Numbered from the stretch's first letter, positions 2,068 through 61,876 are shown. The stretch: DNA of 64,000 nt from Takakia lepidozioides (GCA_030704615.1 CM060732.1:58466001-58530000), one strand, 5' to 3'. Notes: generated from the letters alone by a model not told the origin. Made by a program: numbers and translations.

Positions 2068-2400
2068 TGCCTTCATCGTCTTCGCCGATCTACTTCAACT
2101 TGATCATCTTGTCTTCAGCGTCTTAGTCTTAGATTGCGGAATGTGATTTTCATGGCCTTATGGCTTGCCCATTCTAGGACTTAAAAATTTGTCGTCTTAT
2201 GATATATCACCACATGTACTCCCTGCACGGTTATCCTAGCCAAGGGTTTTGTTCTCGGCCCAATTTGCAGGTGCCATGTTTTTCTTTGGTAGGTTTTTCA
2301 CCAAGCAGCGGAGGGTGACTTTATCAAAATATTTACTTATTATTTCTTATATTTTCCTTCGCGGAGCTCAGGATTTTTCGTGGGGGGTAGGCTTCACAGA

Positions 2401-2854
2401 TGTGATGGCCCAAACTCTCATCATCACCAATTTGCCTTATTCATCCAAAATGGCGATACTCATTCATAGTATAATTATTTTGGCCTAAGTACCGTTAAAC
2501 CGTTACAATGATAGCATAGTCAGGGTTAGTTAATACTAAGTGGCCGCATCCTAGCCGTTCACTAGATCTAGGGCTATGAAAAGGTACCGTGGGCTTAGCC
2601 TGTCACGTCTCGCCACGCGGCATGCAGAGCTCTAGGGTTTGTATAAAGCGGCGGCCTGACCTTGTGTCAGGCAGTTGATAGACGCTAGTGTATGTATGTG
2701 TCTGTAAAGGTGTCCCATCACGATACGTATAAGATTTATGTTAGTTCACTTGTGAAGATCCTCCTCTCGCGTGCATGCACGCTCCTCTTGCTTTGCCCTT
2801 GTCATTTTGAAGAGCACGTGTGAGGACAGGCATATATTCCTCCTGCTTCTTTTA
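2401..2854 (+). repeat. Family A LTR core, 3' copy (A2)
   Basis: TGTGATGGCC...CTTCTTTTA. Matches 4398-4780 plus 8689-8769, and 21783-22231. TATA-like TATAAA at 2642. Confidence 0.9.
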
Positions 2855-3107
2855 AGGCTTCACAACCACAAAAAAAAGATAAAAAAAAAGGTGGACGCGT
2901 TGCCGAAGCGATAGAGAATTTGTTTGTGCAAGGACTCGGAAAGGCTTGTTGGCGAACGCCCTGATTGGCATCGCAGCAGTAGCGCAACATGTAGCTGATC
3001 ATCCATGACTGCACTGGAAGCAACGAATACCAAAAAAAGATACTGATTAAACCAAAGTCGGTGAACGAAGACAGGCAGCAGCCCGCAACACCACGATCAC
3101 CCTTAAT

Positions 3108-4172
3108 TCACGGGCAGGTTGAACATGAAATCACCTTGGTGATGTCGTGAGAGTTAGAATCGTGCATGGAAAGTGCCCACCACTTCCACACACTCATGGT
3201 CTTAACCCAAAAAGACACACAGGTAGAGTTCTCATTCTCCCAAACGCGAGATAACACTGAATCGATAGGAAAGTGATCAAGACTTTCAAGCACCTTAGAT
3301 CTAACAAACCGCTGATCAACAAACAGGGTCCCTGGCAAAATGACGATGTCGGCAGCTCGGCCAACCAAACTGTCCGATGACAGTCCTTCAAGTAGGTCAA
3401 TCGACGGCGGCAGACCTCTGTTTGGCTCGTGATGAAAGTGAAGAACACGCAGAATGAGAGAGCCCGTACCTCGGAGAGCTAATGACAACCAAGATGGCTC
3501 GACAAAGGAGGAGACCAGCCAATCACGGTGAACACGTTCAAAGGATAAAGGAAGATGAAGCCCCAGCTCTTTCCACGACAGGGTCTGATGATGCAAGAAG
3601 CGGGCCTTGACCACGTCACGAGACATACGAGCAGCGTTCCTCGAGGCCACAACCTTCCTTGTCAAAGAGAGAGAGTCTGTGGCGATCACCGCCTGGTCAG
3701 TGTCAGGTCGTCTCGGCGCCAAGACTTGACTCTCAGTAAAGTAGGATATGTCTCGTTGCATCTCAATCTCTACTTTGTCAAACCAGAATTGATCAATAGA
3801 AAGCAAGTTACACACTAAAGCATCATACTCTTGTGATTGCGCTATGTCTCTCTCAAACTCACGTTCCTGCTCTCTGGGACAGACATAATTAGGCCCTGGA
3901 TCGTGATAGTTATCAAAGTTATAATACTCGGGATCACACCTATCCAATGAACCAGATCTCCCAGTGCTTGGCAACCAAGCTTCGGCTACAGCTAGATTAG
4001 CTTCATCACTAGGACTAGGTGAATTCAAGCGGACAACAAGACGTGATTCGACAGCATTATCTCCACACACCGGTAACACCGGCAAGACAAGAGTGCCAGA
4101 CGGCGTACTGGAAGAGGGAGGGTTAGCAGGTGAAGCAGAAAGTGAAATGACCAGATCAAGCTCCACATGCAA
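3108..4172 (-). CDS. Family A ORF1, 354 aa, no recognisable domain (occupies the gag position)
   Basis: Open in both copies (also 20490-21557). Lies between PBS and integrase. No CCHC, protease or RT motif seen. Confidence 0.55.
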   Translation of the reverse strand: MHVELDLVISLSASPANPPSSSTPSGTLVLPVLPVCGDNAVESRLVVRLNSPSPSDEANLAVAEAWLPSTGRSGSLDRCDPEYYNFDNYHDPGPNYVCPREQEREFERDIAQSQEYDALVCNLLSIDQFWFDKVEIEMQRDISYFTESQVLAPRRPDTDQAVIATDSLSLTRKVVASRNAARMSRDVVKARFLHHQTLSWKELGLHLPLSFERVHRDWLVSSFVEPSWLSLALRGTGSLILRVLHFHHEPNRGLPPSIDLLEGLSSDSLVGRAADIVILPGTLFVDQRFVRSKVLESLDHFPIDSVLSRVWENENSTCVSFWVKTMSVWKWWALSMHDSNSHDITKVISCSTCP

Positions 4173-4382
4173 GCGCTAGCCTTAACGATTAACAACACTT
4201 CTAGTTATCGACACATGAGACGCCATAACCTGATACGTAAGCGAGATTAACAAGCAAGCATGGAGAGAACTCAGTACTAAGCAAATACACCGCAGGGTGA
4301 CGGGCTCCCGCCATCTTTATAAGACACTGAGGAGCACTTAAGCGTAACCTAAGCACGCCGTTCAAATGGTCAAGGAAAGTAT

Positions 4383-4397
4383 CCGGCGTCTCCACCA
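4383..4397 (-). promoter_or_regulatory. Primer-binding site of family A, tRNA-Ala-like
   Basis: TGGTGGAGACGCCGG directly after the LTR core, complementary to a ...CCGGCGTCTCCA-CCA tRNA 3' end. Same site at 21768-21782. Confidence 0.75.
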
Positions 4398-4780
4398 TAA
4401 AAGAAGCAGGAGGTATATCTGCCTATCCTCACAAGTGATCTTCAAAATGACAAGGGCAAAGCAAGAGGAGCGTGCACGAGAGGAGGATCTTCACAATGAA
4501 CTGATAGAAATTTCACACGTATCGTGATGAGACACCTTTACATACACATACATACACCAGTGTACATCAGCTGCTTGATACAAGGTCAGGCCGCCGCTTT
4601 ATACCAACCCTAGCTGCATGCTTGCATGCCTGCATGCCGCGTGGCGAGCCGTGCCAAGCTGAGCCTGCGGCGCCTTTTCATAGCCCTAGATCTAGTGAAC
4701 GGCCAGGATGCGGCCACTTAGTATTAGCTAACCCTGACTATGTTATCATTGTAACGGTTTAATGGTACTTAGGCCAAAAG

Positions 4781-5511
4781 TGTCGCGGCCCTTTGCCTTG
4801 AGGGCAGGGGGTCGGGACACACGAGGGGCTGCCCCTGTGGTGGGGGCAGCGGCAGCGATAGGTATGGGGGGGGCTGAAGCACCCTTGAGTGCCCAAGGCA
4901 CTCAGGGAAGCAGAGGCGCTCACTAGGTGGAGCCCCGCACACTGGGTTGCGGTGGGGGTGGCTCCACAAGGGGTGGTGGTAGCTTAGCGGGACTTAGTGG
5001 GGGTGGCATAGGACTCACCATGGGGGCGGAGACCTCGTGGTGGGAGTCGTGGGGAGTCTTGGGACTCATCACGGTCCATAGGGGCCGTGGTGAGTGGGCC
5101 AAGACTCACCGCGACTCATCACCGGGAGTCAAGGGTTTTCGTGGTGGTTCGCCATAAAATGGCAGGCTGGTTGTGAAACCCCCGCGGACAGCTACAGAAG
5201 TATATATATAAGGGGAGTGGTGACCTCGAGAACGGTGCAAGCCCGTTGGTGACCAAAAACTAGTGAGTAAGCGAGCGAGCCGGAAAGCGACCAAAGAGTG
5301 GGGAGCTGTTCCGGACTGCCATCTACCAAAGGGAATTCTCCTAGTCCCAAATAGGTGGAGGGTTTAGTGGGAAGCGAAGGGGGACCGTTATGTCCCGGTG
5401 AGCAGCCGAAGCTCCAAGTTGGCCCGGGCGGCGAGGTTGGGAGTCAGGCGCGCGCATCAAAGCGAGTAACTATGACTTGAAGGGGAGCTTACCGAAGAGA
5501 GGTGCGCGACA
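4781..5511 (+). repeat. 5' LTR of chromovirus B
   Basis: TGTCGCG...CGCGACA termini; preceded by TSD AAAAG (4776-4780); near-identical to 8770-9502 (minus). Confidence 0.95.
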
Positions 5512-5513
5512 CT

Positions 5514-5525
5514 TGGTATCAGAGC
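5514..5525 (+). promoter_or_regulatory. tRNA-iMet PBS of element B
   Basis: TGGTATCAGAGC, 2 nt after the LTR. Confidence 0.95.
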
Positions 5526-5566
5526 TTAGAGTTCAGTACGCGATTGTCCTTGGGATTGGCCTCATC

Positions 5567-5803
5567 ATGGGGTCGGGCAAACCAAAGCGAAAGCGGAACG
5601 GCCCAAAAGATGATGATCCTGGTGAGCCCGATGGGGGCGACGTGTCACCGAAGCGGCCGTTTGAGGAAGCGACGCTGGTTTTTGAAAGCGAGGCCGCTCA
5701 AGAGCGGGAGGAATCCGAGGAGTCGGAGCCCGAGGAATCCGTGAGAGCTCCGCCATACACTAAGGAACAGTTGGAGGCCAAGGTGGCTAAGGTTTTTGAA
5801 GAG
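5567..5803 (+). pseudogene. Element B gag N-terminus, cut by an inversion
   Basis: MGSGKPKRK...KVFEE joins in frame to MSNEMRKER at 14770 (minus). Confidence 0.75.
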
Positions 5804-7130
5804 GATCTACTCCGAGTATGGGAGGATGGACGAGTGAGGATTGTGCCTCATCCAACACAACGAGCACGATTGGTACGCCATGCCCCTAAGGAGTTGGGAC
5901 ATTTTGGGGTGCGGTGCACTCATAGTTTGCTGCAATGACAGTACTGGTGGCGGGACATGCATACGGATGTACAACAGTTAGTAGCAAGGTGTATGGTGTG
6001 TGATAGAGTGCGGGCTTCTTTCAATGCACCTACTTCACAATTGCATCCTTTACCCATTATGGATTTGGGCTATCGTTGGAGTCTTGACTTCGCAAGCCCA
6101 TTGCCACTGACGATTTGCCATAACAAGTATGTGCTGGTGATGGTGGAACATTTCTCCAAATGGATTGAACTGGTGGCATTGCCTGACAAGGCAAGTGAGG
6201 GGGCTGCATATGCATTCTTAGATCGAGTGCTTAGCCAATTTGGTGCTCCAGCTGAGGTACTCACGGACCAGGGGAGAGAGTTCTTGGGGGAGTTTCAGGC
6301 TTTAATTGTGTGAGCAAGCCTTGATAGATCACCGCACTACTTCTCGGGATCATCCCGAGGCTGATGGCTTGGCCGAGAGGGTTGTGCAAACAGTCAAACG
6401 AGGCTTGCGCAAGTATGGCTTGCAAAAGGAACACTTGGGAGATTGGGACCTTCAGCTACCTTGGTTGGCCATGGGCTACAAGTTTAGCAAGCAAGCATCA
6501 CTTGTCTCGTTCTCACCTTATTTCATTTTCTTTGGCCGAGAGCCAGATTTGTCTGCATCTATTTGCAAGGAGACTGCAGTAATCCTCAACCTTGATAATC
6601 CGGATGTGTGGACACAAGCATGTGCCCAGCGAACAGAGTTGTTCAAGAGAGTCATGCCTATGGCTTTTGAGAACCTTGCTATTGCCCAACACCGAGACAC
6701 ATTGAGATACACCACTATACGTGGAGGGGGATATCGGCCAGGTGTTCGGCGTTTCCATCCTGGGGACTATGTGTACCTGCAGCAGACAGCGCCTACGACC
6801 TTGGATGTCACAGCAGGTCGTGTGATTCTAAGGGTCCGGGAGATGTTGCCTTCAGGAGTGTTGATTTTGGAGAGTCGAGATGGCATGGTATGGAAGGACC
6901 ATGTGCGCAATTGTGCGTCATGTCACCTTCCACATGTGGACGGGAGGATAGATCCTAACCTTGCAGTGGTACCTGCAGGGTTGCGTTGCATGCTATGTGG
7001 GCATGCTGGTGGTGCCGCGACCATGTTGGTGTGTGACAAATGCTCAAGGGGGTGGCACATAGGATGCTTGACACCGCCACTTGAGGAGGTTCCTAGTGGA
7101 GAATGGTTGTGTCCACGATGCCTTGGATAG
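5804..7130 (+). pseudogene. Family C integrase (HHCC, DDE) with C-terminal PHD finger (6987-7121)
   Basis: LGHFG..CMVC, WSLDF, VLTDQGREF, GLAERVVQT; PHD CMLC..CDKC..WHIGC..WLCPRC. Stop at 5936 and frameshift at ~6305. Confidence 0.92.
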
Positions 7131-7380
7131 AGGTAGTGGGGCATGACAGTGGTGAGGTTGACAAGTGATCCAAGGTCTAGCTAACGGGAGTTCAATGCCA
7201 TGGACACCCAATTGAAGCCATGGATTGCAGGAAGACGAGTAACGATGGGGCTACTTTTGCACCCGACCTCTTGATCTATTGCCTTCAGATACTGGACTTG
7301 GGCGATTGATGACCAAGCGATGATCTTATTGGGATGGATACTTGTTAGCTATCCGGTGTTAGAGGGACCTAATCACCAGC

Positions 7381-7930
7381 TAGGGGGGCGATTGTGGTAT
7401 AGCTTTCGAGGATTGTGTGCTTAGATTGTGTGGTGGACAACGATGTGTGTTGTGGCACGATGCTTAGGTGCACGACAGCTGTCATGGTTTTAATCATGGT
7501 TATCTAGAATTACCTACTTCTAGTTAACTAGGACATTTTAGATATTTATATTTATATTTTGTGTGTTGGGACTTCATTTGGTCTCACATGCCAAGTGAGG
7601 TGTCGAGCCTCACTTGGGACATGGGGATAGGTTTTCCCCTTGTGAGGATGGAGGAGGCTCATCTTCTTGTAGTTGAGCCTCCATGAGCCTCTTTCACCTC
7701 CATAGCTCTAGGTATTGTGAGGGAGTGTGGTGAGGACTTTGTAGGGTGGATTTCCTTAGCAAGGGTGCCCTTGGCTTGACTTAGTTTATGTAATTGAGTG
7801 GATTCATGAGTGGAGGGTTTCCATTATGTTCACTTTCATTATCATTGTGGTATAGCTTTCTAGGATTGTGTGCTTAGATTGTGTGGTGGACAACGATGTG
7901 TGTTGTGGCACGATGCTTAGGTGCATGGCA
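7381..7930 (+). repeat. Family C 3' terminus: PPT, B1 (7392-7477), GC spacer, A2 (7480-7844), B2 (7845-7930)
   Basis: The 86-bp B repeat occurs twice. A2 matches 18514-18867 (minus). TSD GCCC at 7931-7934. Confidence 0.92.
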
Positions 7931-8688
7931 GCCCCAAGGAATCGCCCCCTCGATGTCACTCACATTTTAGTACTAACACGTGAGACTATCAAATTAGTCG
8001 GTATGTTAGTATAGTATACTGAGGGTTAGTACTTAGTACCAAGTCATTACAGGCTTGGGTTGTGTTTAATTGGTCTTGGACACATTAACATGACCATTCA
8101 TATTTAAGGATGATGGCTTTTAAGTTGGATGAAAAGAAGCATATATCATTACCAACCACCATTGGACATGGACGATACAAGATGGAATGTTGTTAAAGTT
8201 GCAGTCTTCAAAAAGGACATGGCCATGTCGTTAAAGTTGAAGGAGGTTGCAGTCTTCAAAAATTCAACATGGCCATGAACTTAAAGAACATGGCCAAAAA
8301 TTCAAACATGGCCATGACGTTGCGATCTTAAAGCCATGGCCATTTGAGGCTTGTCACTTTTGTAGGGAGCTTATGATTTGTTTGTGCATGCAATTGGTGA
8401 AAATATGATGTCATGTAGAATTAGAAGCGCACAGCCTCTAAAAATTGAACTCGCCATAATTTGGATGCAGAGGGAACACATCTTCCCCCAAAAACTACAC
8501 CATACTTGGAAACATAGTCAGTTACGATGATGGAAAAAGTTCAAGTGTCGCCAAATAAACCTCCACCTCAAAAATTTACTCATCCAAAATGAACTATGGC
8601 ACAACAGGTGCAACCAACCACATGTATATCATGTGCTTCCCAACAATACATTGCCACACTTTCCTCATTTCACATCCAGAGCTAGCCA

Positions 8689-8769
8689 TGTGATGGCCCA
8701 AACTCTCCTCATCACCAATTTGCCTTATTCATCCAAAACGGCGATACTCATTCATAGTATAATTCTTTT
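8689..8769 (+). repeat. Displaced 5' end of the family A 5' LTR
   Basis: TGTGATGGCCCAAAC...; flank GCCA at 8685-8688; ends at the second AAAAG TSD copy of element B. Confidence 0.9.
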
Positions 8770-9502
8770 TGTCGCGCACCTCTCTTCGGTAAGCTCCCCT
8801 TCAAGTCATAGTTACTCGCTTTGATGCGCGCGCCTGACTCCCAACCTCGCCGCCCGGGCCAACTTGGAGCTTCGGCTGCTCACCGGGACATAACTGTCCC
8901 CCTTCGCTTCCCACTAAACCCTCCACCTATTTGGGACTAGGAGAATTCCCTTTGGTAGATGGCAGTCCGGAACAGCTCCCCACTCTTTGGTCGCTTTCCG
9001 GCTCGCTCGCTTACTCACTAGTTTTTGGTCACCAACGGGCTTGCACCGTTCTCGGGGTCACTACTCCCCTTATATATACTTCTGTAGCTGTCCGCGGGGG
9101 TTTCACAACCAGCCATGCCATTTTATGGCGAACCACCACGAAAACCCTCGACTCCCGGTGATGAGTCGCGGTGAGTCTTGGCCCACTCACCACGACCCCT
9201 ATGGACCGTGATGAGTCCCAAGACTCCCCACGACTCCCACCACGAGGTCTCCGCCCCCATGGTGAGCCCTATGCCACCCCCACTAAGTCCCGCTAAGCTA
9301 TCACCACCCCTTGTGGAGCCACCCCCACCGCAACCCGGTGTGCGGGGCTCCACCTAGTGAGCGCCTCCGCTTCCCTGAGTGCCTTGGGCACTCAAGGGTG
9401 CTTCAGCCCCCCCCCCCATACCTATCGTTGCCGCTGCCCCCACCACAGGGGCAGCCCCTCGTGTGTCCCGACCCCCTGCCCTCAAGGCAAAGGGCCGCGA
9501 CA
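8770..9502 (-). repeat. 3' LTR of chromovirus B
   Basis: Reverse complement of 4781-5511. Preceded by purine tract GGTAGGGG, followed by TSD AAAAG (8765-8769, minus). Confidence 0.95.
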
Positions 9503-10408
9503 CACACCCCTACCAACAGGGAGTCGATGTCCTCATCGACTTGTCCATTTTGTAGAGACGAACATCCAAGTTGTGGCGTCCCACATCAAGGAGTTTGTTT
9601 CCGTACCATGGCATCCCATGGCAAAGAACCAAACCCCACACTTGACTCTACTCTCCACTAGCTAGTTCGGCCGACTTCCTCCAAGTCCCGGCCAAGGGTG
9701 GAGCCTCTCCAGCTCCTCCCAGTGCACTCTTCTTGGCCTACTTCAAGGCCAAGGGACGATCCTCCCCGAGGATCGAATCGCCTTACTGCAACAACATTGC
9801 TTGCGATCGCTCATGATGCCGCTTTTGGCATCACCTTGAGCAAGGGTTCACCTGGAACCCTCTTTGACTAGGAAGATAACCTTGAACCAACCGTGCGCCC
9901 CAATCACTACAATTGGGTCCGCCTTGGAATGCTGGCCTGAGGTACGAGAACACGCCGAAGCCGCACTACGACTTCGTCCCGAGGCTACACGATTATAGTA
10001 CGTGAACGGAAGCACGTAGCTTCCGCGTTAGCCCGCACTACAAGGCAACCCCCTCGGTAGTGCAGTTATAGTACGCGCACGTGCCAGGTGCTGCACTAGC
10101 ACGTGAACTCCCAAAGAAGGCGCAAGTTTCCTTGCCCCTTGGATGAGGGTCACCCAATTTTGGCACTACGCAAACACACGATTAACCCAATTTACCTCTC
10201 CCACTTTTATAAGCTAGCATGCATTCTACACACTAGCCAACCATACCATGCATCACCATTCCAAACAAAATAAGACGCACAACATTTGGAAGCCATTTCA
10301 TTTATAGCACATTTTGTACAATACAAGTTTTTGCAATCGGATTCCTAAGCTAGCTAAGCCGGGCTAAGCATGCATTTCCTCCCCCACGCTCCAAGGTTGA
10401 TGTCCCCA

Positions 10409-12400
10409 TCAACGCTTCTTCCGCTTTTGAGGTCGCCCTTCGAAAGCTGCAACCGCCTCGGATGCGTTTCTCATTTCTGAGGCACGCACCCAAGATGCCT
10501 CCACATGATGATAGCCCTTCCATTTGACGAGATACTCCGTTTCTCGGTTCCTGAACCTCCTCGACTTAAGTATTGCCTCCACCTCGTACTCAGGTTCATT
10601 TTCATGATCCAACAGCATAGGTGGTGGACGCAACACTTGATGCCGATTCGGACGCGCTTCATCTTTGAAGTAAGGCTTCAAAAGGGATACATGGAATACT
10701 GGGTACACCTTACTGTTTGCCGGCAGCTCCAATTCATAAACATCCTCATTCATAACCTTCCGAATGCGAAAGGGTCCTGCATACGGAGGTACGAACTTCG
10801 GACTCACTTCCGGAGGTAGTCGGAAATTCTTGATGTTCAACCAGACCTCTGTACCTGCCTCAAACTTCACTTCCCTCCGCTTCCGATTCGCCTGCTTTTC
10901 ATACCGTTTCCTAGCTTTGGCAATGTTGTACTTTGCGAGCTTCAACAAACGCTCGCGTTCTTCCAGTACCGCCGCTACTGCCGGTTCCTCAACGTCCTGG
11001 GCGGCCCAACTTGTCGGCACCAGAGGTGCTTTTCCATAGACCAATACGAAAGGGGAAACTCCCGTTGCGGAGTGTTCTGTGTTATTATAACAGAACTATG
11101 CCGCGTCTAAGTGTTCCACCCAGTCTGTTTGGTCTGCCGACACGTAATTCCGCAAGATCTGCTTCACTACGGAATTCACTCTTTCTATTTGGCCGTCGGT
11201 CGTAGGTCGGAAGGCGGTGCTCATCTTCAGCCTCGTCCCCATCTTCTTCCAAAGTGCCCTCCAAAATTTACTCGTAAACTTTGGATCGCGGTCCGAGACA
11301 ATATCCTTCGGGACTCCATGATGCTTTAAGACGTGGGCGAAGTAAAGTCGCCCTGTCTCCTGCGCCGTTGCCGTCTCCTTGGTGGGGATGAAATGGCCCA
11401 TTTTACTGAACCTATCCACCACCACCATGATTGCATCAAATCCTTTTGACAGCGGCATAACAGTCATGAAATCCATCGAGACGCTTTCCCAAGTCCCCTC
11501 TGGAATCGGCAAGGGTTGTAACAGCCCCGCTTGCTTTTTGTACTCGCTCCGGTTTTGTTGGCATGTGGTGCATGTCTTGACATACTCCTCTGCCTCCTCC
11601 CTCAGTTTGGGCCAGAAATACTCTTTCTTCAGGAGTGCCGCAGTGCGTTTGGCTCCGCCGTGGCCTGCAAGCGGGCTATCATGGCATTCTCTCAAGAGGC
11701 TATCTCTGATCCCTCCCTTTGGCACGTAGAGACGTTTTTGCTTATACCGGAGCAGTCCATTTTGCAAGTGGAACTGCGATTTAACCCCCATCCTCAAGTC
11801 CTGCATCACGGACTTCGCCAGCTCATCCTTCCGGCAAGCCTTCCGGATCTTCTTTTGGAGCGTCGTCTCGCCCCTGTACACCAACAGGAGCTGCTGCTTT
11901 CTACTTAAAGCATCGGCCACCACATTGTCCCGTCCCGGTTTGTACTGGATATCCACGTCGAACACCGCCAAAGTATCTTGCCACCTAAGTTGTTTTGGGG
12001 ACAACTTGGGCTGCGTGGCAAAATACTTCACTGTGACATTGTCCGTGAACACCTTCACTGGGTTGGAACCAACATAGTGGCGCCAAAGCTCAAGGCAATG
12101 CACCACCGCCTTCATCTTTTTTTCGTGCGTCGGCCACCGTCGCTCCACTTCATTCAGTTTCTTACTTTCGTAAGCCACTGGACGTCCATCTTGCATAAGT
12201 ACACCCCCAATCGCGAAGTCCGACGCATCTGTATGAATTTCAAATGGACGATCGAACTCCGGGATTTTCAAGACTGGAGCTTCCACCATCCGCTGCTTCA
12301 ATTCAGCAAAAGCTTGGCCACAAAATGTGTTCCATACCTAGACTTTGGATTTACACAGAAGGTCCGACAACGGCCCCGCGATCTTGGAGACAATGCCGTA
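10409..12400 (-). pseudogene. Element B RNase H, integrase and chromodomain
   Basis: [39 protein letters not shown] motif, chromodomain EYEVEAIL..YLVKWKGY..ASW. Stop at 11096. Confidence 0.95.
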
Positions 12401-14150
12401 CGGAGCTGAACCACAAGAAGACCCGGCGGGAAGGTGACTCCTCCCGACCGGAAAAGAAGTGGGATAGGCCACGCGGCGACAATGGCACGTGGAAATCGAA
12501 GGGAGGGCCTTCACACGTCAAGGCGGCACCCGGTGCTTCGAAAGGAAAAGCGGGTGGAGCGGCTTATGGCGGACAGAAGGCGACCTTTGATGGAGTGTGT
12601 TTCAATTGCGGAGAGCCCGGGCACATGGCTAAGAAGTGCACGAAACCTCGACAATTGAACATGACTCGGGCAACCACGGAGCTGTCGGAAGATACCATCA
12701 GTCGCTTGGTGGAAGCGGTGGTCGCCAGGACTTGCAAGGTAGGCAACTATTCTTGTGAGTTGTATCAGGAAACTGGCGCCCTGCGTAAAGGGAGTCAGTT
12801 ATTGTTCGTGGATGGGATAATATCCGGAACTAACGTGTCGTTGTTGGTGGACACAGGAGCGTCGCACTCCTTCATGATGCCGGCGGCGGCGCGAAAGTTG
12901 GGACTCCCGACAAGTGACGTGGGGGCCTCTATTGAGGTGCGTTCTGCCAAAGGAGAACCACAGTTGACAACAAGGTTGGCGTTTGATGTTCCTCTTCAAC
13001 TGGGGAGTTGGGAGGGACGTGAGAACTTCACCATCTGCGAGATCGATGGAGTAGATCTCATTTTGGGGATGACCTTTTTGAGCAAATCCGGAGCGATCAT
13101 AGATGGCCGCAAGAGAGTAGTCACGCTGCCTTGTGGGAATGGTAGCGAGGTCTTACGAGTGTCGGAAACGCCCAAATCCGTGGGAGGGCGAATAAACCTT
13201 CTGTCAGCAAGGGAGTGGGCCGTGGAGGAGGCACACGAGCCCCAGTTTTTGCTTTACATTAGAGAAGTGAAAGGAGAAGGCGATGGGGAGCCGAGCCCAG
13301 ATTGGATCAAGGGGATTTTGGGGAAATACCAGGATGTGATGCCGGAGGATTTACCAAGCGGCTTGCCACCGCGAAGAGGAGTTGACCACAAGATTGAGGT
13401 GATACCGGGAACGGAACCGCCTGCCAAGGCACCCTACCGGTTGAGCCACAGGGAGTTGGTCGAGCTGAAGACTCAGCTCAAGGATCTAATGTCAAAGGGG
13501 TACATCCGGCCGAGTAAGTCACCTTACGGAGCCCCGGTGCTATTCGCAGACAAGAAGGATGGGACGTTGCGGATGTGTGTCGATTACAGGGCTCTGAATA
13601 AGGTGACTATCAAAAACCGGTACCCTTTGCCAAGGATCGACGACCTCTTCGATCGGTTGGCAGGAGCGAAGTATTTCAGCCGGATCGACTTGCGCTCCGG
13701 CTATCATCAAATTCGGGTGGCGGAAGGAGATGAGGAGAAGACCGCGTGTAGGACAAGGTATGGTTCATATGAGTTCTTGGTGATGCCTTTTGGGCTCACC
13801 AATGCACCAGCGACATTTAGCACGCTGATGAACATCCTTTTCCAGGAGTGGTTGGATGACTTTGTGATCGTGTACATCGACGACATCTTGGTGTACTCGA
13901 AAACAAAGGAAGAACACCTGGAGCACCTAAAAAGGGTGTTCCAAAAATTGCGAGAAGGGAAGCTGTATGCCAAAGCTTCAAAGTGCGAATTCGGGGTCAC
14001 AAAAGTGGAGTTCCTGGGGCATGTGATTACACAGGATGGGATCAAAATGGATGACAGAAAGGTGAGGGCGATCTTGGACTGGGAGCCTCCGACTTCGGTC
14101 CCGGGAGTGCGATCCTTCCTAGGACTCACCTCCTATTACCGGAAGTATGT
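12400..14150 (+). pseudogene. Element B gag C-terminus (CCHC), protease and reverse transcriptase; internally inverted segment
   Basis: [50 protein letters not shown]. Confidence 0.95.
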
Positions 14151-48020: not shown

Positions 48021-49899
48021 TGTAGTGTGAATGCAGGGGGTAAAAATTCAAGTTTTTGTTTGGCATCAGGTTTCGGCACTACTACAAAGGGAGTGCCCTT
48101 CGTGCTAATGAAGGGGAGGAATTGTCCATAACTTGAGGTAATTCCATGGAAAAACTATGCTATTGATCTGCCAAGAACAAAATATGGCTAAGTTATGACA
48201 TGCACCTTTTTCATCCCTAGGATGAATGATTTTCATCCATGATGTTGAACCCTAGAAGCAGGATGTGAAATTCGAAGGGGAAGAGTGCGTGCATCTTTTC
48301 GCAGCTGCTGCAGTGGTGTTGGCAGCACAGGATATCTGAGAAAGTTCCACCTACGCAAAGGGTATCAGCTTGCTTTAAAGAGAAACGTTAAGAGCTCCTG
48401 CTTGGCTTTCTGTGCAAGAAGAAGCGGTGCCGCCTTCTTCGAAAGCAATTATCAAACCTGAGGGATCAGGTTTGTGATAAGGGCGGTGCACCACTGCTGT
48501 CGCCATTGTCTTGATGAGCACATTAATGAGGAGATGGAGCGGCTCAGCAGGTGTTGGGGGATGAGAAGTACAGGTTGGTGTGTATAGCGCCTCAGGTTGT
48601 CTGTGATCAAATCTTGTAGCTGCTGTCTGTTTGAGAGCTTTAGGACCAGATCACTTTGTAAGGGAAGAGAGTAAGCATTTTTTGCAGCTGCTGCAGTGGT
48701 GTTGGCAGCACAGGATATCTGAGAAAGTTCCACCTACGCAAAGGGTATCAGCTTGCTTTAAAGAGAAACGTTAAGAGCTCCTGCTTGGCTTTCTGTGCAA
48801 GAGGAAGCGGTGCCGCCTTCTGGTGTGTATGGCGCTTAAGCTATCTATAATTAAGTTTTGTATCTGCTCTCTGTCTTAAGGGCTGTAGGACCAGATCACT
48901 TCATAGGGAAGAAATGCACATGTAGAAGGATAGGGTAGAGGTTGGCAGGCACAAGGATGTGCCAGCAGCTGAAGCGGAGCCATCATGCCTTAATGAGGAC
49001 TGGAATCACGATAAGAAGAAACGTCGGAAATGGCTGACGAGGGAGATGACAAGGTGCCTTCTTGACAGGCAGACCCACCGCTTCAATGAGTATAAGACAG
49101 ATAAGTTCGAAGAGTGTTGGCTTCCTTTTTGGCACTTAGGAATGACTTTGTGAAGTTTTTGGAACTGTCTCTTGTATCTACTGAAGGAGACAGAAATGTG
49201 AGGAGTAGAAAAGGCCTTTGAAAAATGGAATGAAGACACTGGAATTCAAACCAGGATAGGGTGGAGATGGATGCACCTGTTGTTACACTGTTATTAGGAA
49301 AATGAGAGGGGATAGGGATATCTCACCTCAGGGTCAGAATGGTTGCTGTTCTTGTGTTCCTTTTCTTTGTTTTCAGTGTTTTCAGCCAGCAAAACAATGC
49401 AGCCTTGGATGTTAAAACAGTGGAGCCAGTGTAGAACTAGCTTAGAGGAATGAGGAAAACAAGGATGGTCATTCAGAAACTGATTTGAAGAGCTGAGAAG
49501 GGATGACGTGGATGGGGAAGAAAAGTCAATACTGTTTTGGGGTTTGGATCTGATTTCTAGAAGTGTTCTCAACATGTGAATGACTGATGTTCGAAGTTGA
49601 GGAGAAAAGGAGAGCTGTCAGGGTGTGTGATTTGAGATCTGTAGAAGGGTTGTGAAGCACCTTGACCAAACAGGATACACTTGGGGAAAGGTAGTGCAAG
49701 GACTAGTCACTGGAAAGAGAGAGAGAAAAAGACTGACAGAGGGGCAGATTATCTCTTGTGTGACCAAGGTTGACTTCAATGATGGATGCACTGGATGCCC
49801 GGCTGGATGTGCATTGCATTGCATCGTAGCCATGCTGTTGTGGAGAAAAGTGAGGAATCCACACATGAAAGAAAAGGAGTGTGAGAGAAAAAAAAGGTG
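48021..49899 (+). repeat. Element E 5' LTR, 3'-truncated (no PBS seen)
   Basis: Nearly identical to 56483-58358. Internal ~140-bp direct repeat at ~48300-48440 and ~48683-48821. Confidence 0.93.
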
Positions 49900-50543
49900 C
49901 AGAGCTGATGTTAAATCTTGATTTCTACTAGCTATGGATCTTGACTGGTATTGGATGGTTTGATGGCAGGAAGAGACCACACACTGATTCCTGATGAACC
50001 AAGCATTGGAGATGTGCTGATTTGCTTCAGCAGACGCACACCAAATGCACACGCAGACCCTTGTTTGTACTTCTTCAACCCTGCTTGGAGAATAGCGAAT
50101 GGTGATTTATGTCTTAGAGTGATACATACTGGTGGAAGAACAACCATAGCACTTTGGATAAGAGAGTTAGGAAGGTGGGTGAAGATAAATACCATGGCAC
50201 GAGAGGTGACATGGGGAGGTAGAGTAAAGATGTTGCGAAATGGACAGCGGGAGTGGTATAGAGGTCAACATTAAGGGAGTTGCGGGAAAATTAGAGTCAG
50301 AATTAGGTGTTGAAACAGTTTGAACTTTGACTAGAGAATAGAAGGATGACCAGTCCAACCAGCATAGATGCGCCTTATCATGGTAGGAATAGTGAGGATG
50401 TAAATGACTGGCTGGAGAGAATTCAGATGGAGGCAAATGTCAGGGATTTGAATGAGGACAAAACTTTCAAGGTAGCAAGGCTCAACCTGAGAGCCAAGGC
50501 TGATGAATGGTACCGTAAATAAAACCCTAGACCAAACAACTGG

Positions 50544-53500
50544 GTGGACTTCAGGGCAGCAATTTCAGCCAAGTTTGGTATCGTTGACTTGGCAGAAATT
50601 AGGCTAAGAATGGATACCATTAAACAGGAGAGTAGACAAAGGGTTCAAACATACTTCGATAGGTTGAACCGGTTATTTATAAGAAGTGGGGCGTCTGATT
50701 TGGAACAGAGGCGTAGATTTGCAGCAGGTTTGAGACCAGAAATAGCAAGAGTAATGCTGGGCAGGCGCTTCCTTGATGTAGAGGAAGCACTTGACACAGC
50801 CATTGAGATTGAAAGGGGCCTGGGAAAGTTAGGGGAAATACCTCTAGAGCCATTGGAAGGAGATGATACAGATGAGTCAGTTGTGTTTGTTAACCCTATG
50901 GACAGAAGACTTGATCAGCTGAACACTACCCTACAGAAGTACTTTGATAGGGGACCAGTCATAGGAGAAATCTCGGGATCTAGAACACCACCTCGTGTTC
51001 GCCTTTGTAATGTTTGTCACAAAGAAGGTCACATAGCTGCATATTGTCCTGAAGGAAGAACCCCAGCTAAGTGTGACAAATGTCACCGGTTCGGGCATTC
51101 CACGGAAATGTGTGGTGTGAGATGCAACTTTTGCAAGCTACTCGGGCATACGGAGAGTGAGTGCAGTAGAAAACTCGACCAAACTATGATGGGAACTCCG
51201 GGAACTAACTTTGTAGATGTGTTCTATGATGATGAGGATGATGTACTCGCAGAGAGGACAGATCTGATGTCACGAAATAGTATCAATGAAGTCAGACTTC
51301 CAAGGACACGCATACCTGTCCAGAGTCCGATTGTTGAACCTACAAGGTCACCAGAAAGGAATAGTGAGAGCAGTGAACAGCCAAGCAAGACCAAGAGTGA
51401 AATCTACCCAAAGAACAATTTCAAGAATGCTATAGAAGGAGGTACGAAATCCAGAATCTTGAACCACTTCTACAAAGGGAGAATATCGTTGTCGCCCATG
51501 GACCTGATCATGACTGTGCCCGGAGAGCTAGACAAATTGAAAGGGCTGGTCAAAGTGGTGGAAAGAGCAATGGTCCAACAAAGGGAGACAACTCACAGTG
51601 TAGAAGTTGTGAAGGATGTACCAAGGCCTTTGTACTCAGCACACGCTGAGCCCACGATCTCGTATGCTTATACTAGTAAGGTTAAAGCGCTTCATGTAAT
51701 GATTACAATGGGAGATTACCAAGTATTAGGCCAGATTGACACTGGTGCCATGCTTTCTGTAATATCAGCTAGTACAGTCAGGGATCTTGGTTTGATGGGA
51801 TCTGTCATTACTAGTAAGGATGTGAATAACAGAGTAGCCTCAGGTGCTCTTGAGACTGCAATGGGCAGACTTGAGGACATCAAGGTCAAAGTAGGAGAAC
51901 TGACCAATCGTTTGTCCTTTATGGTGGTGAACACGGATACATATCACATGCTGCTGGGATTAGACTTTCTCAAAAAGTTTGGCGCTGTAGTGGACACCGA
52001 AGCTGAAACAATTCGCGTACGCTATGGGCCAGGAAAGGATTTTGCTCACTTCCCTTTGCACACCATCAATTATAATGAGCCTGCAGTTACCAAAACAGCC
52101 TACCATAGAGGGGTCGAGAGTAGAATGAGATATGCAAGCAGTACGTCAGCAGGTAATGTCTTAACCCTGACGTCAGATGAACAGTACCTAGGCTTGTGGG
52201 AGAAGAAAAGAAAACCAGAGGAAGAATATGAGGACACGGAGGAAACATCCTCAGGTTCTGACACCTCTAAATCTGATAAAGATGAGGAGATGGGAGGCTC
52301 TGAGGAGAGTAAGGAGGTAGAAACAGCACTGAGGGATGTTGAGGAAATAATAGACGATGTCAACCTAGGGGAGGACTTGTTCGAGGACCAAGGGATGTCT
52401 GAACTCCTTCAGGAAGAGACCCATAAGAGCATGGCTGCTGCCATAATACAGGAAGCTTACCAGAAAGCTTGGAATGGTGAACTAGGGAACAACAACCTAG
52501 AAATAGAGGATGACTTCCATGATTGGAATCAGGTTGTCACACAAGAGGAAGGACAGAGAATGGCTAACTCTGTAAGCCAGGTGGAGGGAAAGAATTGGGA
52601 ACCCAGTCAAGAGGAAGAAATGGAGAGTCATTGGAGAAGTCTGAAATCCAGACTGCACATCAACCCAGAACTGGCCCCAGAACATAGGATAGAGCTGGAG
52701 CAAGAGCTGAAAGCAAACTAGGAATGCTTTGCTCTTAGCAAGGCTGACTTGGGATACTGCAGTGAGGTGGAACACACAATTGACACACAAGGTTTTCCCC
52801 CTTGCAGAAGTCGTCCCAGCCGCCTATCAGAATGGGAGGAAGACGAGGTCCAAGGACAAATTGAGACTTTGATCTCACAAGGCAAGATGAGAGAGAGTAG
52901 TTCAGAATGGTCGTGTCCAGTTACCCTTCCACCAAAAAAGGTTGGATCCAAGCGGTTTTGTGGTGATTTTAGGCCAGTAAACCGTTTAACCAGAAGGGAC
53001 TCTTACCCTATGCCATTAATTCAGGATGTTTTAAACCAGTTGGGGAAAGCCAAGTGGTTTTCTGCGCTGGATTTACAATCTGGTTTTTGGCAGATCAAAA
53101 TGGACGACCGAGACATAGGCAAAACAGCAGTGATCACAAAGAAGGGATTGTATGAATGGCTAGTCATGCCATTCGGGCTAAAAAATGCCACTGCTACCTT
53201 TCAGAGAACAATGAATAGGGTGCTCAAGGAAGAAATCAAAGATTGCACTAAAGTTTTTGTAGATGACGTCAATATCCATAGCAAGGACTGGGGAGATCAC
53301 GTGGGACATATAAAGAGAGTATTGAGCAAGGTTAGAAAGGCCAATCTTAGGCTCAATCCGGACAAGTGTTACTTTGCCAACTTACAGTTGGTATTCCTTG
53401 GGCATGTGATCTCTGAAGAGGGAACGTGGCCTGATCCAGATAAGATAGCTGCTATTGAAAGGTTTCCCTTGCCAAAAAACCACACTGCTCTCAAAAGCTA

Positions 53501-56461
53501 CTTAGGCATGACAGGATACTATAGGCCCTATGTCAAAGGATATGCTGGAGTGGCAGTACCCTTGTTCACTCTAACCAAGAAGGATGTGAAGTTTATCTGG
53601 AGTGCAGAGGCACAAAACGCCTTTTCTGCCTTACAGGTGAAGTTGGTAACTGCTCCCATCCTGGCAAGACCAGATTTCTCAAGACCGTTCGTCTTGGATG
53701 TTGACTGGTCCATCAAAGGAGTAGGGGCAGTCTTGTCACAAAAGGAGTATAAAAAGGAGAGGGTCATTGCATACGCCAGTAAGGTACTATCTGATGCTCA
53801 GCGCAAATATCACCCTATGGAAGGTGAATGCTATGCCCTGGTGTGGGGAGTATTACACTTTCGGCAGTACCTGTATGGAACCCCTTTTGTAATCAGGACT
53901 GATCACAAACCACTGGAGTGGTTGGCAACGGTAAGTGACGCATATGGACGCAGGGGTAGATGGATCATGATGTTACAAGATTTTGAGTTTAAAATTGTTC
54001 ACAGAGCAGGTGCTAGGCATGCTAACGTAGATGCACTAAGCAGGTATCCAGTGGGACCAGCTGAGGAAATCGAGGAAATCGAGGTATACTCTACTTCTCT
54101 GTACAGTCAGAAAAGAGAAGGGAGAAAGAGGGATGGAGCCTATCTTCTTAAGCTAGCTTGGGATAGGGGTGCCATCAATGCTTCGTTATTTCAATTTAAG
54201 GAGGGTAAGGAGGAGTTGAGAGAAGAAGCTCTTAGGCAAGTAGGGTATAGCAGTGAAAAATGGGAGATGATTTGCAAAAGAGAAGAGTACTATGCATGTG
54301 TATGGGGCCTTTGGCACTTCAAGAAAATACTGTTGGGAAGTCATTTTTCTTTGGAAACAGATCTAGATCCATATTGGTGGCTGTACTCAGAGCACCACAT
54401 AGGCATAGACTTACTTGGTGACTTTTCATTTGAGTTCGTTCCGGGCATAGTAAGATCTTCCACAGGTGGAATGTTGACCAAGGATCATGGCATATTGAAG
54501 GGAGAACTGAAACCAGGCATAATGCCAGATGGAGAAGGAAAGAGGGTGACTTTTGCTGCACAGACTTTTGCTACAAAAAAACAAGGAAAGGGTATTGATC
54601 AATCAAGCTCTGTCAATCTGGTAAGGGAGGGTATTTGGAAGGATAAGGGTGCAGGAAGGATAGAGGCTACTGCAATCAGCAACAAGGAAAGGGAGCATCT
54701 GATGCCCTCTTGTCCCACCATCCATGTGATTACCCGAGGATCTCGTGCTCGTGATAAGGAGCTAAGCGAGGTACATCCAGCCTGTGAACTTGTGGAAGAG
54801 AGATCGAACAATGAAAAGGGAAGCTTGCAAGAGACACCATTCCTTCAACACTTGACAAGCACTCCAACAACAAGAAGAACGCGGGTGACTTCCTCATCAA
54901 AATGCCCAGCCAAGGAAAACATGGGGGGTGAGTGTTCCACCAAGACGTTTTATTCTTCAGACAGTGATGGAACAAGTGGTTCAGAACAAGACACTTCTTC
55001 TTGCAACAAGATTGATGAAGGGGACTGGGTACCATGGACCGCACCCACCAAAGCTACTCAGATGTCATTATTACGTGAGGCTGAAAGATGGGGGAAAAGC
55101 TCTCTCATCAGCTCTGACCATCATACAGCAACTGTTAAGGAGGAAAGGCAACCTGATGTGCTTGATGATGTGGAAGTCATGCACCTCTTATGTTTTGGAG
55201 AAGTCAATGACTACCTGACAAAGAGGAGAGCAAGAGAGCCAAGAGGCGGGCAAGGCAGTACTCCTATCTCAAAGGTGAGGTCTACTTTGATGGAAGGGTA
55301 GTTCCACCAAGAACTGACAGAGGGGCAATAATCACTGAAGTACATGAAGCCACTGGCCACTTTGGAGTCAGAAGAACACAAGAGGAGATATGCCGACGTT
55401 ATTTCTGGCATGATAGAACAAAACTCATCAGGCAAGTACTCAAGGGCTGTGGTAAATGTCAGATGGCCAAACAGAACGGAGTGTTGCGCTCAGGTAGCTC
55501 AAAACTTCACAGCATTCCAGTAGTGGATCTGTTTTTCAGAGTTGCAATTGACACGGCAGGACCATTACCTATAACCAGCAGGGGCAATCAGTACTTTCTG
55601 GTGGCAATCGATCACTTCTCAAAATGGATAGAAGCTGCACCAGTGGCAGATCATACAGCAGCCCTTGCTGCCCGCTTTCTTGAGGAAGAAGTAATTGACA
55701 GGTATAGCTGCCCACATACGTTGCTTACTGACAATGGCACAGAGTGGGGAGGTGAGTTTGAAGATACATGCCACGAATACGGTATAAAGAGGGAGCATAG
55801 CGCCCCCTACTGGCCTCAGTGTAACGGTATGGTGGAAAGGGTCATTAAGTCTCTCAAACAGAGCATCACCACCCTAGGAGTTGGAAACGACACTGAGTGG
55901 GATCAGAATCTCTATAAGGCCCTGTTTGGTTACAGAATGGGTGTCCATGCTTCCACTGGATTCTCACCTTTTCAGGTACTTACTGGTAGAATTCCAAGGC
56001 TGGGAATTGACAACAGGTTGCATTTTCTTACAACACCAGTAAATTCTGATGGATCTGTAGCAGAGGTCACACTTATGATGCAGCAGAAAATCCAGCTTCT
56101 CACAGAGATGAAGGCAAAGCTGCGAAAGAGTGTGAAGAAAGGGCAGTGTCAACAGGCAAGAGATTATGAAAGAAGGCATCAAACAGGGCATACCTACTGT
56201 ACGTTGATGGAGAACAGCAAGGTAATGATGTTGAGGCCTGGAAAGAGGTCTTCCATGACATCTCCATGGGAGGGACCCTATGACTTTTTGGGGTACAAGG
56301 ATGCAGAAAACACAACCAAGACTGGAGAAGCTGCACAAAGATGCAGGTTGAGAGATGGAGCAGACAAGGAATGGGTAAGAAGTAGGAGGGATTTAAAACC
56401 CTTCATACCACCAATAGATGTTCAGCCGTCAAAGGTGGTCAGTGAGGACCCTGCCACTTAA
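50544..56461 (+). pseudogene. Element E gag-pol: three CCHC knuckles, protease, RT, RNase H, integrase
   Basis: CNVC..H..C, CDKC..H..C, CNFC..H..C; IDTGA; FVDD; LDVDWS; VAIDTAGP, TDNGTEW, GMVER, GPY. In-frame TAG at 52719 and frameshifts at ~55200-55450. Confidence 0.93.
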
Positions 56462-58882
56462 AAAAGGGAGACACACTACATATGTAGTGTGAATGCAGGG
56501 GGTAAAAATTCAAGTTTTTGTTTGGCATCAGGTTTCGGCACTACTACAAAGGGAGTGCCCTTCGTGCTAATGAAGGGGAGGAATTGTCCATAACTTGAGG
56601 TAATTCCATGGAAAAACTATGCTATTGATCTGCCAAGAACAAAATATGGCTAAGTTATGACATGCACCTTTTTCATCCCTAGGATGAATGATTTTCATCC
56701 ATGATGTTGAACCCTAGAAGCAGGATGTGAAATTCGAAGGGGAAGAGTGCGTGCATCTTTTCGCAGCTGCTGCAGTGGTGTTGGCAGCACAGGATATCTG
56801 AGAAAGTTCCACCTACGCAAAGGGTATCAGCTTGCTTTAAAGAGAAACGTTAAGAGCTCCTGCTTGGCTTTCTGTGCAAGAAGAAGCGGTGCCGCCTTCT
56901 TCGAAAGCAATTATCAAACCTGAGGGATCAGGTTTGTGATAAGGGCGGTGCACCACTGCTGTCGCCATTGTCTTGATGAGCACATTAATGAGGAGATGGA
57001 GCGGCTCAGCAGGTGTTGGGGGATGAGAAGTACAGGTTGGTGTGTATAGCGCCTCAGGTTGTCTGTGATCAAATCTTGTAGCTGCTGTCTGTTTGAGAGC
57101 TTTAGGACCAGATCACTTTGTAAGGGAAGAGAGTAAGCATTTTTGCAGCTGCTGCAGTGGTGTTGGCAGCACAGGATATCTGAGAAAGTTCCACCTACGC
57201 AAAGGGTATCAGCTTGCTTTAAAGAGAAACGTTAAGAGCTCCTGCTTGGCTTTCTGTGCAAGAGGAAGCGGTGCCGCCTTCTGGTGTGTATGGCGCTTAA
57301 GCTATCTATAATTAAGTTTTGTATCTGCTCTCTGTCTTAAGGGCTGTAGGACCAGATCACTTCATAGGGAAGAAATGCACATGTAGAAGGATAGGGTAGA
57401 GGTTGGCAGGCACAAGGATGTGCCAGCAGCTGAAGCGGAGCCATCATGCCTTAATGAGGACTGGAATCACGATAAGAAGAAACGTCGGAAATGGCTGACG
57501 AGGGAGATGACAAGGTGCCTTCTTGACAGGCAGACCCACCGCTTCAATGAGTATAAGACAGATAAGTTCGAAGAGTGTTGGCTTCCTTTTTGGCACTTAG
57601 GAATGACTTTGTGAAGTTTTTGGAACTGTCTCTTGTATCTACTGAAGGAGACAGAAATGTGAGGAGTAGAAAAGGCCTTTGAAAATGGAATGAAGACACT
57701 GGAATTCAAACCAGGATAGGGTGGAGATGGATGCACCTGTTGTTACACTGTTATTAGGAAAATGAGAGGGGATAGGGATATCTCACCTCAGGGTCAGAAT
57801 GGTTGCTGTTCTTGTGTTCCTTTTCTTTGTTTTCAGTGTTTTCAGCCAGCAAAACAATGCAGCCTTGGATGTTAAAACAGTGGAGCCAGTGTAGAACTAG
57901 CTTAGAGGAATGAGGAAAACAAGGATGGTCATTCAGAAACTGATTTGAAGAGCTGAGAAGGGATGACGTGGATGGGGAAGAAAAGTCAATACTGTTTTGG
58001 GGTTTGGATCTGATTTCTAGAAGTGTTCTCAACATGTGAATGACTGATGTTCGAAGTTGAGGAGAAAAGGAGAGCTGTCAGGGTGTGTGATTTGAGATCT
58101 GTAGAAGGGTTGTGAAGCACCTTGACCAAACAGGATACACTTGGGGAAAGGTAGTGCAAGGACTAGTCACTGGAAAGAGAGAGAGAAAAGACTGACAGAG
58201 GGGCAGATTATCTCTTGTGTGACCAAGGTTGACTTCAATGATGGATGCACTGGATGCCCGGCTGGATGTGCATTGCATTGCATCGTAGCCATGCTGTTGT
58301 GGAGAAAAGTGAGGAATCCACACATGAAAGAAAAGGAGTGTGAGAGAAAGAAAAGGTGAAGAAGGGAGAAAGGGTTGATGAGGGATGGACAAATGGAGAG
58401 CCAAGGTCAAGAAGACATGAACCCTGAATGATCAAACTAGTGGGCCTGCAGTTCATGGCAGATCTGAGCTGCCCATCCACCTAGACCGTGATCTCATTAC
58501 AAAAGGGGGCTTCCGACGTGTTGCTGACCAAGGGAACTGCCCACAAGGGCAGGGTTTCATCACTGACATAGGGCTGATTGCATCACTGAATACATCGCAC
58601 CAGCATAGCTGGTGCTGTACCTGTAGGTAGGGGATGTTGTGTAAAAGGTAGAACCAAGAGTGAACAACAAATTGACTCCCCATCCATGTCTTCTCTTCCG
58701 CTGCGGCGTGGATGAGGATTGCGTGAACTCTGATCACGAAGGAGCTGAGGGAAACCCACAGCCAAGTGACGACAGTTGGACAGACTAGAAGAACGTTTCT
58801 TTCTTTTGCTCCGCTTAGAATGGAGGGGAGCACAATTAGAATTATACAGAAGGGGATTCACGCCCCTTCTTTTCACACTACA
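56460..58882 (+). repeat. Element E 3' terminus: PPT, B1 CACACTACA (56472-56480), TA, LTR core (56483-58873), B2 CACACTACA (58874-58882)
   Basis: AAAAAAGGGAG followed by the palindrome CACACTACA-TA-TGTAGTGTG. Confidence 0.92.
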
Positions 58883-59035
58883 GGATCTCGCAAGTTCAAA
58901 AGCAGATGACGCTTAGCCCGGCCAATGGTTTGCCAGTTTCCACCATGACAGACATTGCATGGACATAGAATTTTCCAAAGACCCAGTCTTCTTGCTCACG
59001 CTTCCTCTAGTTTCCACAATCTGTCATCGTCATGT
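58883..59035 (-). pseudogene. 5' exon of the CACTA transposase (transposase-associated domain), separated by the element E insertion
   Basis: CPCNVCHGG..AKRHLLLNLRDP continues as NLRELP across the GGAT TSD. Confidence 0.7.
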
Positions 59036-61830: not shown

Positions 61831-61872
61831 CCTCTGTGGGCATGTAAACACAACCCACAAAGAGGTCCTTCG

Positions 61873-61876
<4 letters not shown>

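Follow-up and report, generated by a model that had tools for sequence, protein, structure and literature searches.

Priming at a primer-binding site (PBS) and a polypurine tract (PPT) is established for long terminal repeat (LTR) elements, and PAT, TOC1, Kangaroo, Ngaro and VIPER pass through a circular intermediate. In the IS3 family (IS911), abutted ends a few bases apart are the substrate of a DDE enzyme. The subject of this study is a 64,000-nt stretch of Takakia lepidozioides DNA (CM060732.1:58466001-58530000, GCA_030704615.1), called the window, with positions counted from its start. Self-comparison and reading indicate plant-type repeat DNA across the window, and three Ty3/gypsy families in it, here named A, C and E, have split repeats and carry an internal junction of two facing element ends. 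Published work is cited below for the portions of each source that were covered. Split direct repeats of the form A1-B1-A2-B2 were defined for tyrosine-recombinase elements (PMC4157794). In Klebsormidium nitens, KnitGypsy-Dnmt3 combines a Gypsy pol with a cytosine methyltransferase, and its repeats are called DIRS-like in the legend of Fig. 4c, DIRS being drawn as A-coding-B-A-B in the legend of Fig. 1e (PMC5890265, 2018). A figure legend describes the active Gypsy-7a_cRei of Chlamydomonas reinhardtii as having a left LTR without the final 8 bp (PMC9940879, 2023). For DDE-integrase retroelements, 2-LTR circles have long been held to be dead ends, but cleavage by the foamy virus integrase is known and retroviral circles have been proposed as an integration reserve (PMC4372172). 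The HIV-1 integrase cuts an LTR-LTR palindrome in vitro after CA on both strands with a 4-nt stagger (PMC1905944).

The general layout of the elements is TSD-A-PBS...PPT-B-nn-A-B-TSD (TSD, target site duplication), with a CA-nn-TG junction directly behind the PPT. A purine tract precedes the junction in all three families. The junction reads TCACA-GA-TGTGA in family A (2394-2405), CGACA-GC-TGTCA in family C (7473-7484) and CACACTACA-TA-TGTAGTGTG in family E (56472-56491), the last being the longest of 385 CA-nn-TG palindromes in the window. The second copy of B, behind A2, matches the first at 9/9 positions in E, 10/10 in A and 84/87 in C. An original prediction, made from the sequence, had described these junctions, the B copy behind A2 and the layout, and the junction sequences and the identity of B2 with B1 were found again at the same places. 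B is only 9-10 nt long in A and E. As a chance estimate, in 0.13% of draws an ACA-nn-TGT begins no more than 5 positions away from a randomly chosen LTR site. The LTRs of A, C and E had been said to have no evident similarity, and their longest mutual alignment is indeed at most 17 bp. It had also been claimed that the 5' repeat lacks B in A and C and that the end of A1 is deleted in E. In both copies of A and in C the 5' repeat adjoins the primer site without B, and A1 of E stops about 510 bp early. Predicted 4-bp TSDs are present in E (GGAT/GGAT) and C (GCCC/GCCC), but those of A match at three of four positions (GCCA/ACCA). The predicted DDE integrase domain occurs in each family, although A and C retain broken remnants of it.

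The elements have the features of Ty3/gypsy: a primer site behind the 5' repeat (deleted in E), a PPT ahead of the 3' repeat, TG...CA outer ends and a TSD in the 4-6 bp range. E has the domain order gag, protease (PR), reverse transcriptase (RT), RNase H (RH) and integrase (IN), the latter of the DDE type, and its best PDB match is the Ty3 Gag-Pol. No chromodomain follows the integrase in E or C, and only another element in the window, chromovirus B, has one. Canonical LTR elements have identical TG...CA LTRs that lie within 2 nt of PPT and PBS; here the 5' repeat lacks B, and B-nn stands behind the PPT. The repeats instead have the split form A1-B1-A2-B2 that characterizes PAT and Ngaro. A and C are broken up by nested insertions and inversions, and duplicated flanks and TSDs served to connect their halves. 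The layout is a genuine and general one; it is clear in C and E, and less clean in A, which is old and broken.

Relatives of E were collected with a search profile made from the E integrase and 23 relatives. The E-like set consists of the best 80 of at least 546 confirmed metagenome-contig stretches and of two viral-contig loci, with 43-47% identity; scanning viral contigs with the E integrase alone gave no match. The junction stands behind the PPT in 79 of the 82 loci, and of the remaining three, two run out at a contig edge and the third has another insertion within it. CATATG is found in 76/79 junctions. When the set was thinned to below 80% identity, ACATATGT was present in 36/37 junctions, and positions beyond +3 varied. 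The spacer is palindromic (TA or GC) nearly everywhere. Sixteen left ends, representing 14 distinct sites, have flank before each, and none of the 14 has B-nn. In 12 of these 14 independent insertions the 5' repeat reaches the primer site, which we take to be of the tRNA-Met type, with no B ahead of it. Among nine full-length insertions, eight have a perfect 4-bp TSD and one matches at 3/4 positions. The expectations that further copies would lack B in the 5' repeat, have 4-bp TSDs and read PPT-B-nn-A-B at the 3' end were thus borne out, the last in E-like and C-type relatives alike. The first 8 nt of the E-like primer site (for example in L055 and L060) end in CA and resemble B2, and because of this likeness LTR finders could call E-like elements symmetric.

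There are 33 right ends (30 distinct), and TATG follows B2 in 0/30. B2 equals B1 over 7 nt in 22/30 insertions, and at the two variable positions of B it does so in 29/30, a degree of agreement reached in 0/50,000 permutations; the one exception, L074, differs at a variable position. The inverted left end matches at the same two positions in just 15/30. The seam between A and B was flush in six of 13 E-like elements, had one extra base in six (4 T, 1 C, 1 A) and was complex in one, so that the predicted seam irregularities occur in 7/13. The purine fraction of positions 8-17 is 0.77 at the left end, 0.98 at the inverted right end and 0.06 at the inverted PPT junction (n=31). The likeness to the left end extends past B in the inverted right end but not in the junction on the PPT side.

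Relatives of C carry names from liverworts, Sphagnum and Klebsormidium. A K. nitens protein has 47% identity to the integrase-PHD part of C, and K. nitens is not named among the 120 listed methyltransferase matches. Four C-type integrase-PHD contigs (L083-L086, 44-65% identity), binned in prokaryote genomes, all have a PPT, 56-108 nt and then GACA-GC-TGTC. With the C of the window, this arrangement is found at 5/5 C-type 3' ends, and the motif is kept down to 44% protein identity. In L084, B1 and B2 are identical at 106/106 nt and flank follows. B2 was not found in L083, L085 and L086; L083 has the look of a collapsed contig, and in L085 and L086 the repeat may continue beyond the contig end. 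L083 encodes protease, methyltransferase, RT and integrase-PHD in this order, and its A repeat leads into a 13-nt self-complementary primer site with letters unlike those in the window. Viral-contig scans gave no match with the C alignment and one weak, unrelated locus with the methyltransferase alignment. Eukaryotic retrotransposon contigs were filed in prokaryote bins (L083-L086) and in a viral contig collection (L081-L082). In a quick integrase tree of 72 rows, of which 45 outgroup rows were drawn at random from matches chosen by likeness to A, E-types and C-types share one branch (SH-aLRT 99).

The same junction is found in a Chlamydomonas repeat library (that of PMC9940879), in which record boundaries at places 9-109 of 158 were judged by eye. 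CA-GC stands at the LTR boundary in 17 of 24 Gypsy internal records with visible ends, including that of the active Gypsy-7a. These records belong to families 2, 3, 5, 6, 7, 8, 9, 10 and 11, with 5a in reverse orientation, and in 16 of the 17, between 6 and ~50 nt of the record's own LTR end are repeated. The other 7/24 (families 1, 4, 12, 13, 15, 16 and 17) have a conventional boundary. A motif search of the library found five further such junctions, each with a G run ahead. The Chlamydomonas families are set beside the E and C clade by junction layout. Gypsy-7a_cRei is an active Gypsy and, like family C, has a PHD finger; the portions of its account covered here do not mention an internal copy, a junction or a mechanism, and the word polypurine is absent from the preprint text (PMC9940879).

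Our data suggest that in these Ty3/gypsy elements the cDNA ends are probably joined imprecisely into a 2-LTR circle, which the DDE integrase likely cuts after CA on both strands, at the CA-nn-TG junction beside the seam, and then inserts. With standard priming, the cDNA repeat would be B-nn-A, extending from the PPT to the primer site, and both attachment ends would lie inside it. From a cDNA ending in B-nn-A, the observed layout would not be obtainable by ordinary linear integration. B2 lies beyond the start of the minus strand and therefore could not be inherited from the 3' terminus of the RNA; since its letters follow those of B1 lineage by lineage, every cycle likely rebuilds it from the left end of the cDNA. 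Joining of the two cDNA ends, by host repair into a closed circle, would place B behind A, and the seam would vary because the ends are joined. A 2-nt staggered cut would leave CA-3' ends and 5' overhangs of 2 nt, as at the processed ends of retroviruses, and a cut beside the seam would release the observed element, with normal processed ends and TSD. In families with a short B, a complete right end would need the pyrimidine run that closes A as well as B, and the seam-side junction would be the only one to combine them. In families with a long B, the choice of junction would need an integrase already bound at the cDNA ends. The layout, a 4-bp TSD, a B2 that matches B1, a variable seam, a conserved junction and a DDE integrase are all present in the integrated copies, and comparison of these copies supports the circle cleavage put forward in the original prediction.

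Several points weigh against this reading. The support comes from integrated copies; neither a circle nor a cDNA end nor a cleavage product was observed. A closed circle would have two B-nn-A junctions, yet products of a cut on the PPT side and the 1-LTR circle were not seen; the original prediction had expected this alternative permutation and a 1-LTR product, and neither was found, which suggests cutting at just one of the two junctions. For the long-B families, in which five ends were examined, sequence alone leaves the missing PPT-side products unexplained. In cells, HIV gave no such cleavage product (PMC1905944). In 4/7 imperfect seams the extra base is a T within a T run, where slippage is possible. 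Family A has a non-palindromic spacer (GA), a 3/4 TSD and a single 3' end, and in the quick tree it falls outside the E and C clade on weak branches; it may have a separate origin or be too decayed for placement. Finally, no closed circle would be needed if the RT jumped end to end, which could yield an identical seam. Repeat collapse accounts equally well for the terminal repeats of contigs L083 and L089 and for matches to the LTR at contig edges, and these were therefore set aside as evidence of circles.

The RT jump deserves the closest attention among the alternatives, although we consider it unlikely. In this scheme the RT passes from the right cDNA end to the left, copies B and a little more, and the integrase cuts internal CA sites of an end-bridged or terminally redundant molecule. 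The integrated layout would be identical, and the exclusive use of the end-side junction would follow directly, even with a B of ~100 nt. Reverse transcriptase can add non-templated bases, and the single bases added at the seam fit such addition. Against it, the integrase would have to cut twice at internal sites or once across a flap, and a single symmetric substrate is suggested by the conserved palindromic spacer. Retroviral 3' processing is also inefficient when more than 2 nt separate CA from the end (PMC1905944). It is far less probable that two cDNAs are joined head to tail and that the integrase cuts a unit-length element from the dimer. The seam would be the same and a difference between B1 and B2 as in L074 would be accounted for, but B1 and B2 agree in 29/30 insertions across diverged families, no tandem element was found and TATG stands behind none of the 30 right ends.

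Ordinary linear integrants, in which B1 would repeat the left terminus in inverted form or match by chance, and deletion, rearrangement or assembly would account for the asymmetry, are already contradicted by the data and highly improbable. In their favour, many families have a B of just 6-10 nt that overlaps the terminal inverted repeat, the window is heavily rearranged, and the end of A1 is deleted in E. Yet B2 follows B1 rather than the left end in inverted form, C-types have a B of up to 87-108 nt, and the 5' repeat stops at the primer site in 12/14 independent E-like insertions. New laboratory insertions of Gypsy-7a were also reported, in a family whose left LTR lacks the final 8 bp (PMC9940879). 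Integration like that of PAT or Ngaro, by a tyrosine recombinase acting in trans, is scarcely credible, since it shares the A1-B1-A2-B2 layout (PMC4157794) but the elements have TG...CA ends, 4-bp TSDs, PBS and PPT and a DDE integrase instead, and a domain search found no recombinase family in the three long frames of E.

The proposed circle cleavage can be compared with known systems. PAT, TOC1, Kangaroo, Ngaro and VIPER share the split direct repeats (PMC4157794) and differ from the present elements, which have a DDE integrase, PBS and PPT, TG...CA ends and 4-bp TSDs. Retroviral 2-LTR circles share the symmetric cut that follows CA in an end-to-end palindrome. In those circles the ligation seam itself is the junction, it is cut with a 4-nt stagger, and the route is an optional one, whereas here the junction is encoded, has a 2-nt spacer and lies 6-110 nt from the seam, and the route appears obligatory. 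In the IS3 family (IS911) the transposase makes the junction. In the present elements the join of A and B lies off the attachment ends and varies, and it is therefore unlikely to be made by the integrase. KnitGypsy-Dnmt3 resembles family C in having a C5 methyltransferase inside a Gypsy pol and A-B-A-B repeats. Unlike KnitGypsy-Dnmt3, the type described here reaches land-plant relatives and short-B families without a methyltransferase; junction, TSD, priming and mechanism are not described in the covered portions of its account, and the term target site is absent from the main text (PMC5890265). Compared by lineage description only, Phygy and Selgy of REXdb also have 4-bp TSDs, and Selgy is ~5 kb long with a tRNA-Ala primer site (PMC6317226). 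Identity with Troyka was rejected, as this has CG...CG ends and a 3-bp TSD (PMC12440569) compared with TG...CA and 4 bp here. The covered portions of PMC2774666, PMC8557442 and PMC13539953 contain nothing on the layout. The original prediction knew of no earlier description. The repeat layout is in fact present in legends of PMC5890265 and PMC9940879, and the asymmetric layout has thus been in print twice (2018 and 2023); within the literature searched, the junction, how widely it occurs and the route appear not to have been described, although subscription papers, theses, Repbase Reports and supplements could hold a description.

Family E lies in one piece on the plus strand at 48021-58882, flanked by GGAT duplications, the left one at 48017-48020. 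Its 5' repeat A1 (48021-49903), which lacks the last ~510 bp and the primer site, matches A2 at 99.9% of 1880 aligned bases up to the break. Gag-protease, RT-RNase H and DDE integrase are encoded at 50523-56461 in three frames with stops. The PPT (56460-56471) is followed by B1, of 9 nt with a CA end, and the spacer TA (56472-56482), by A2 (56483-58873), and by B2 (58874-58882) with the right GGAT (58874-58886 together). Contigs from four sequencing runs were aligned to the 3' part of E. Among the 32 pieces listed, with 667 more unlisted, one contig of run X5 spans the junction at approximately the depth of the internal region (20.7), and in two runs contigs stop at position 58873, where A meets B. 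Such stops are expected if other copies branch there into the primer site, which gives weak support to a deletion as the cause of the short A1 in E. CACTA-type transposase frames (Transposase_21, DUF4218, DUF4216; 44408-47804, minus strand) adjoin E. The runs cover the right flank of E deeply, which makes it likely that E lies within another repeat.

Family C is split by inversions between TSDs GCCC/GCCC. On the minus strand are the left TSD (18868-18871, GCCC in minus-strand letters), the 5' repeat A1 without B (18514-18867), a primer site (18502-18513) with 12 nt complementary to its own LTR at 7661-7672, and a protease remnant with a C5 cytosine methyltransferase domain (14840-16705). On the plus strand are an integrase remnant with a C-terminal PHD finger (5816-7130), containing one stop and one frame change, the PPT (7382-7388) with B1 (7391-7477, 87 nt) and the spacer GC (7382-7479 in all), and A2 (7480-7844) with B2 to 7930 and the right TSD GCCC at 7931-7934 (7480-7934 in all). 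An empty target site is present in the duplicated flank (22852-22855, minus strand). C-type elements are predicted to be self-priming, with complementary but differing letters in the window C and in L083. Self-priming was reported in REXdb for the Tcn1 and TAR lineages (PMC6317226), and the predicted case lies outside both. Relatives of the methyltransferase (14840-15949, minus strand) are named from Marchantia, Calypogeia, Riccia and Sphagnum, and methyltransferase-carrying Gypsy elements therefore appear to reach land plants.

Family A is older, its A1 and A2 being ~91% identical. The left TSD (8685-8688) and the first 81 bp of A1 (8685-8769, plus strand) are cut off by chromovirus B, and the remaining A1 (to 4398) has a tRNA-type primer site directly behind it (4380-4775, minus strand), presumably tRNA-Ala-like. 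The integrase remnant (931-2067, plus strand) consists of a zinc-binding part and DDE core with 3 stops and a 22-residue gap; PR, RT and RH gave no match in family A. The 3' end on the plus strand comprises the PPT (2382-2387), B1 (2389-2398) and spacer GA (2382-2400 in all), then A2 (2401-2854), B2 (2855-2864) and the right TSD with its 3/4 match (2401-2868 in all). A second copy is 5' only (19993-22231, minus strand; A1 22231-21783, primer site directly behind). The A integrase has no close relative among its best 150 matches, the three named ones being pseudoscorpion polyproteins, and a viral-contig scan with the A alignment gave 13 distant loci, none with usable ends. A frame of 355 aa at 3108-4175 (minus strand), of no known family, is also open in the second copy (20490-21566, minus strand), with 89.6% identity. 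It belongs to no Pfam family and had no usable Atlas match, the Atlas result being uninformative.

Chromovirus B (4781-14604), which served as a control, is nested in A and broken by inversion. Its 5' LTR (4781-5511, plus strand) and the other LTR (8770-9502, minus strand) are 98.6% identical, it has a chromodomain, and its order PPT-2 nt-TG...CA-2 nt-PBS with a 5-bp TSD is conventional. At 929-24005 a block of ~4 kb is duplicated, with C nested in the flank and chromovirus B in A, and several inversions have breakpoints within elements. Elsewhere in the window, an EMP70/TM9 gene without intron is spread over two overlapping frames (36630-38622, minus strand), which represents a frameshifted copy or an assembly error. 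Tandem arrays occur at 29682-31922 (minus strand, ~410-bp units), where the array is a single open frame of 746 aa, and at 42030-43981 (~129-bp units). A non-LTR retrotransposon fragment with an endonuclease domain is located at 60481-62040 (minus strand).

Our study points, on balance, to an old and widespread green-lineage branch of Ty3/gypsy, from Chlamydomonas to bryophytes, in which an end-joined 2-LTR circle would be the obligatory precursor. Its members would encode the junction internally and would have converged on the layout of Ngaro and PAT while keeping the DDE integrase, and one member would now be transposing in laboratory Chlamydomonas. REXdb retained only elements with TG and CA on both LTRs (PMC6317226); LTR finders require symmetric TG...CA repeats, and elements of this kind are likely to have been filtered out or given wrong boundaries. 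The group is natural and abundant, and its integrated form is not derivable from the textbook linear route. The proposed route predicts an integrase that is specialized in cutting a closed junction, and with an active family in the model alga Chlamydomonas it is directly testable.

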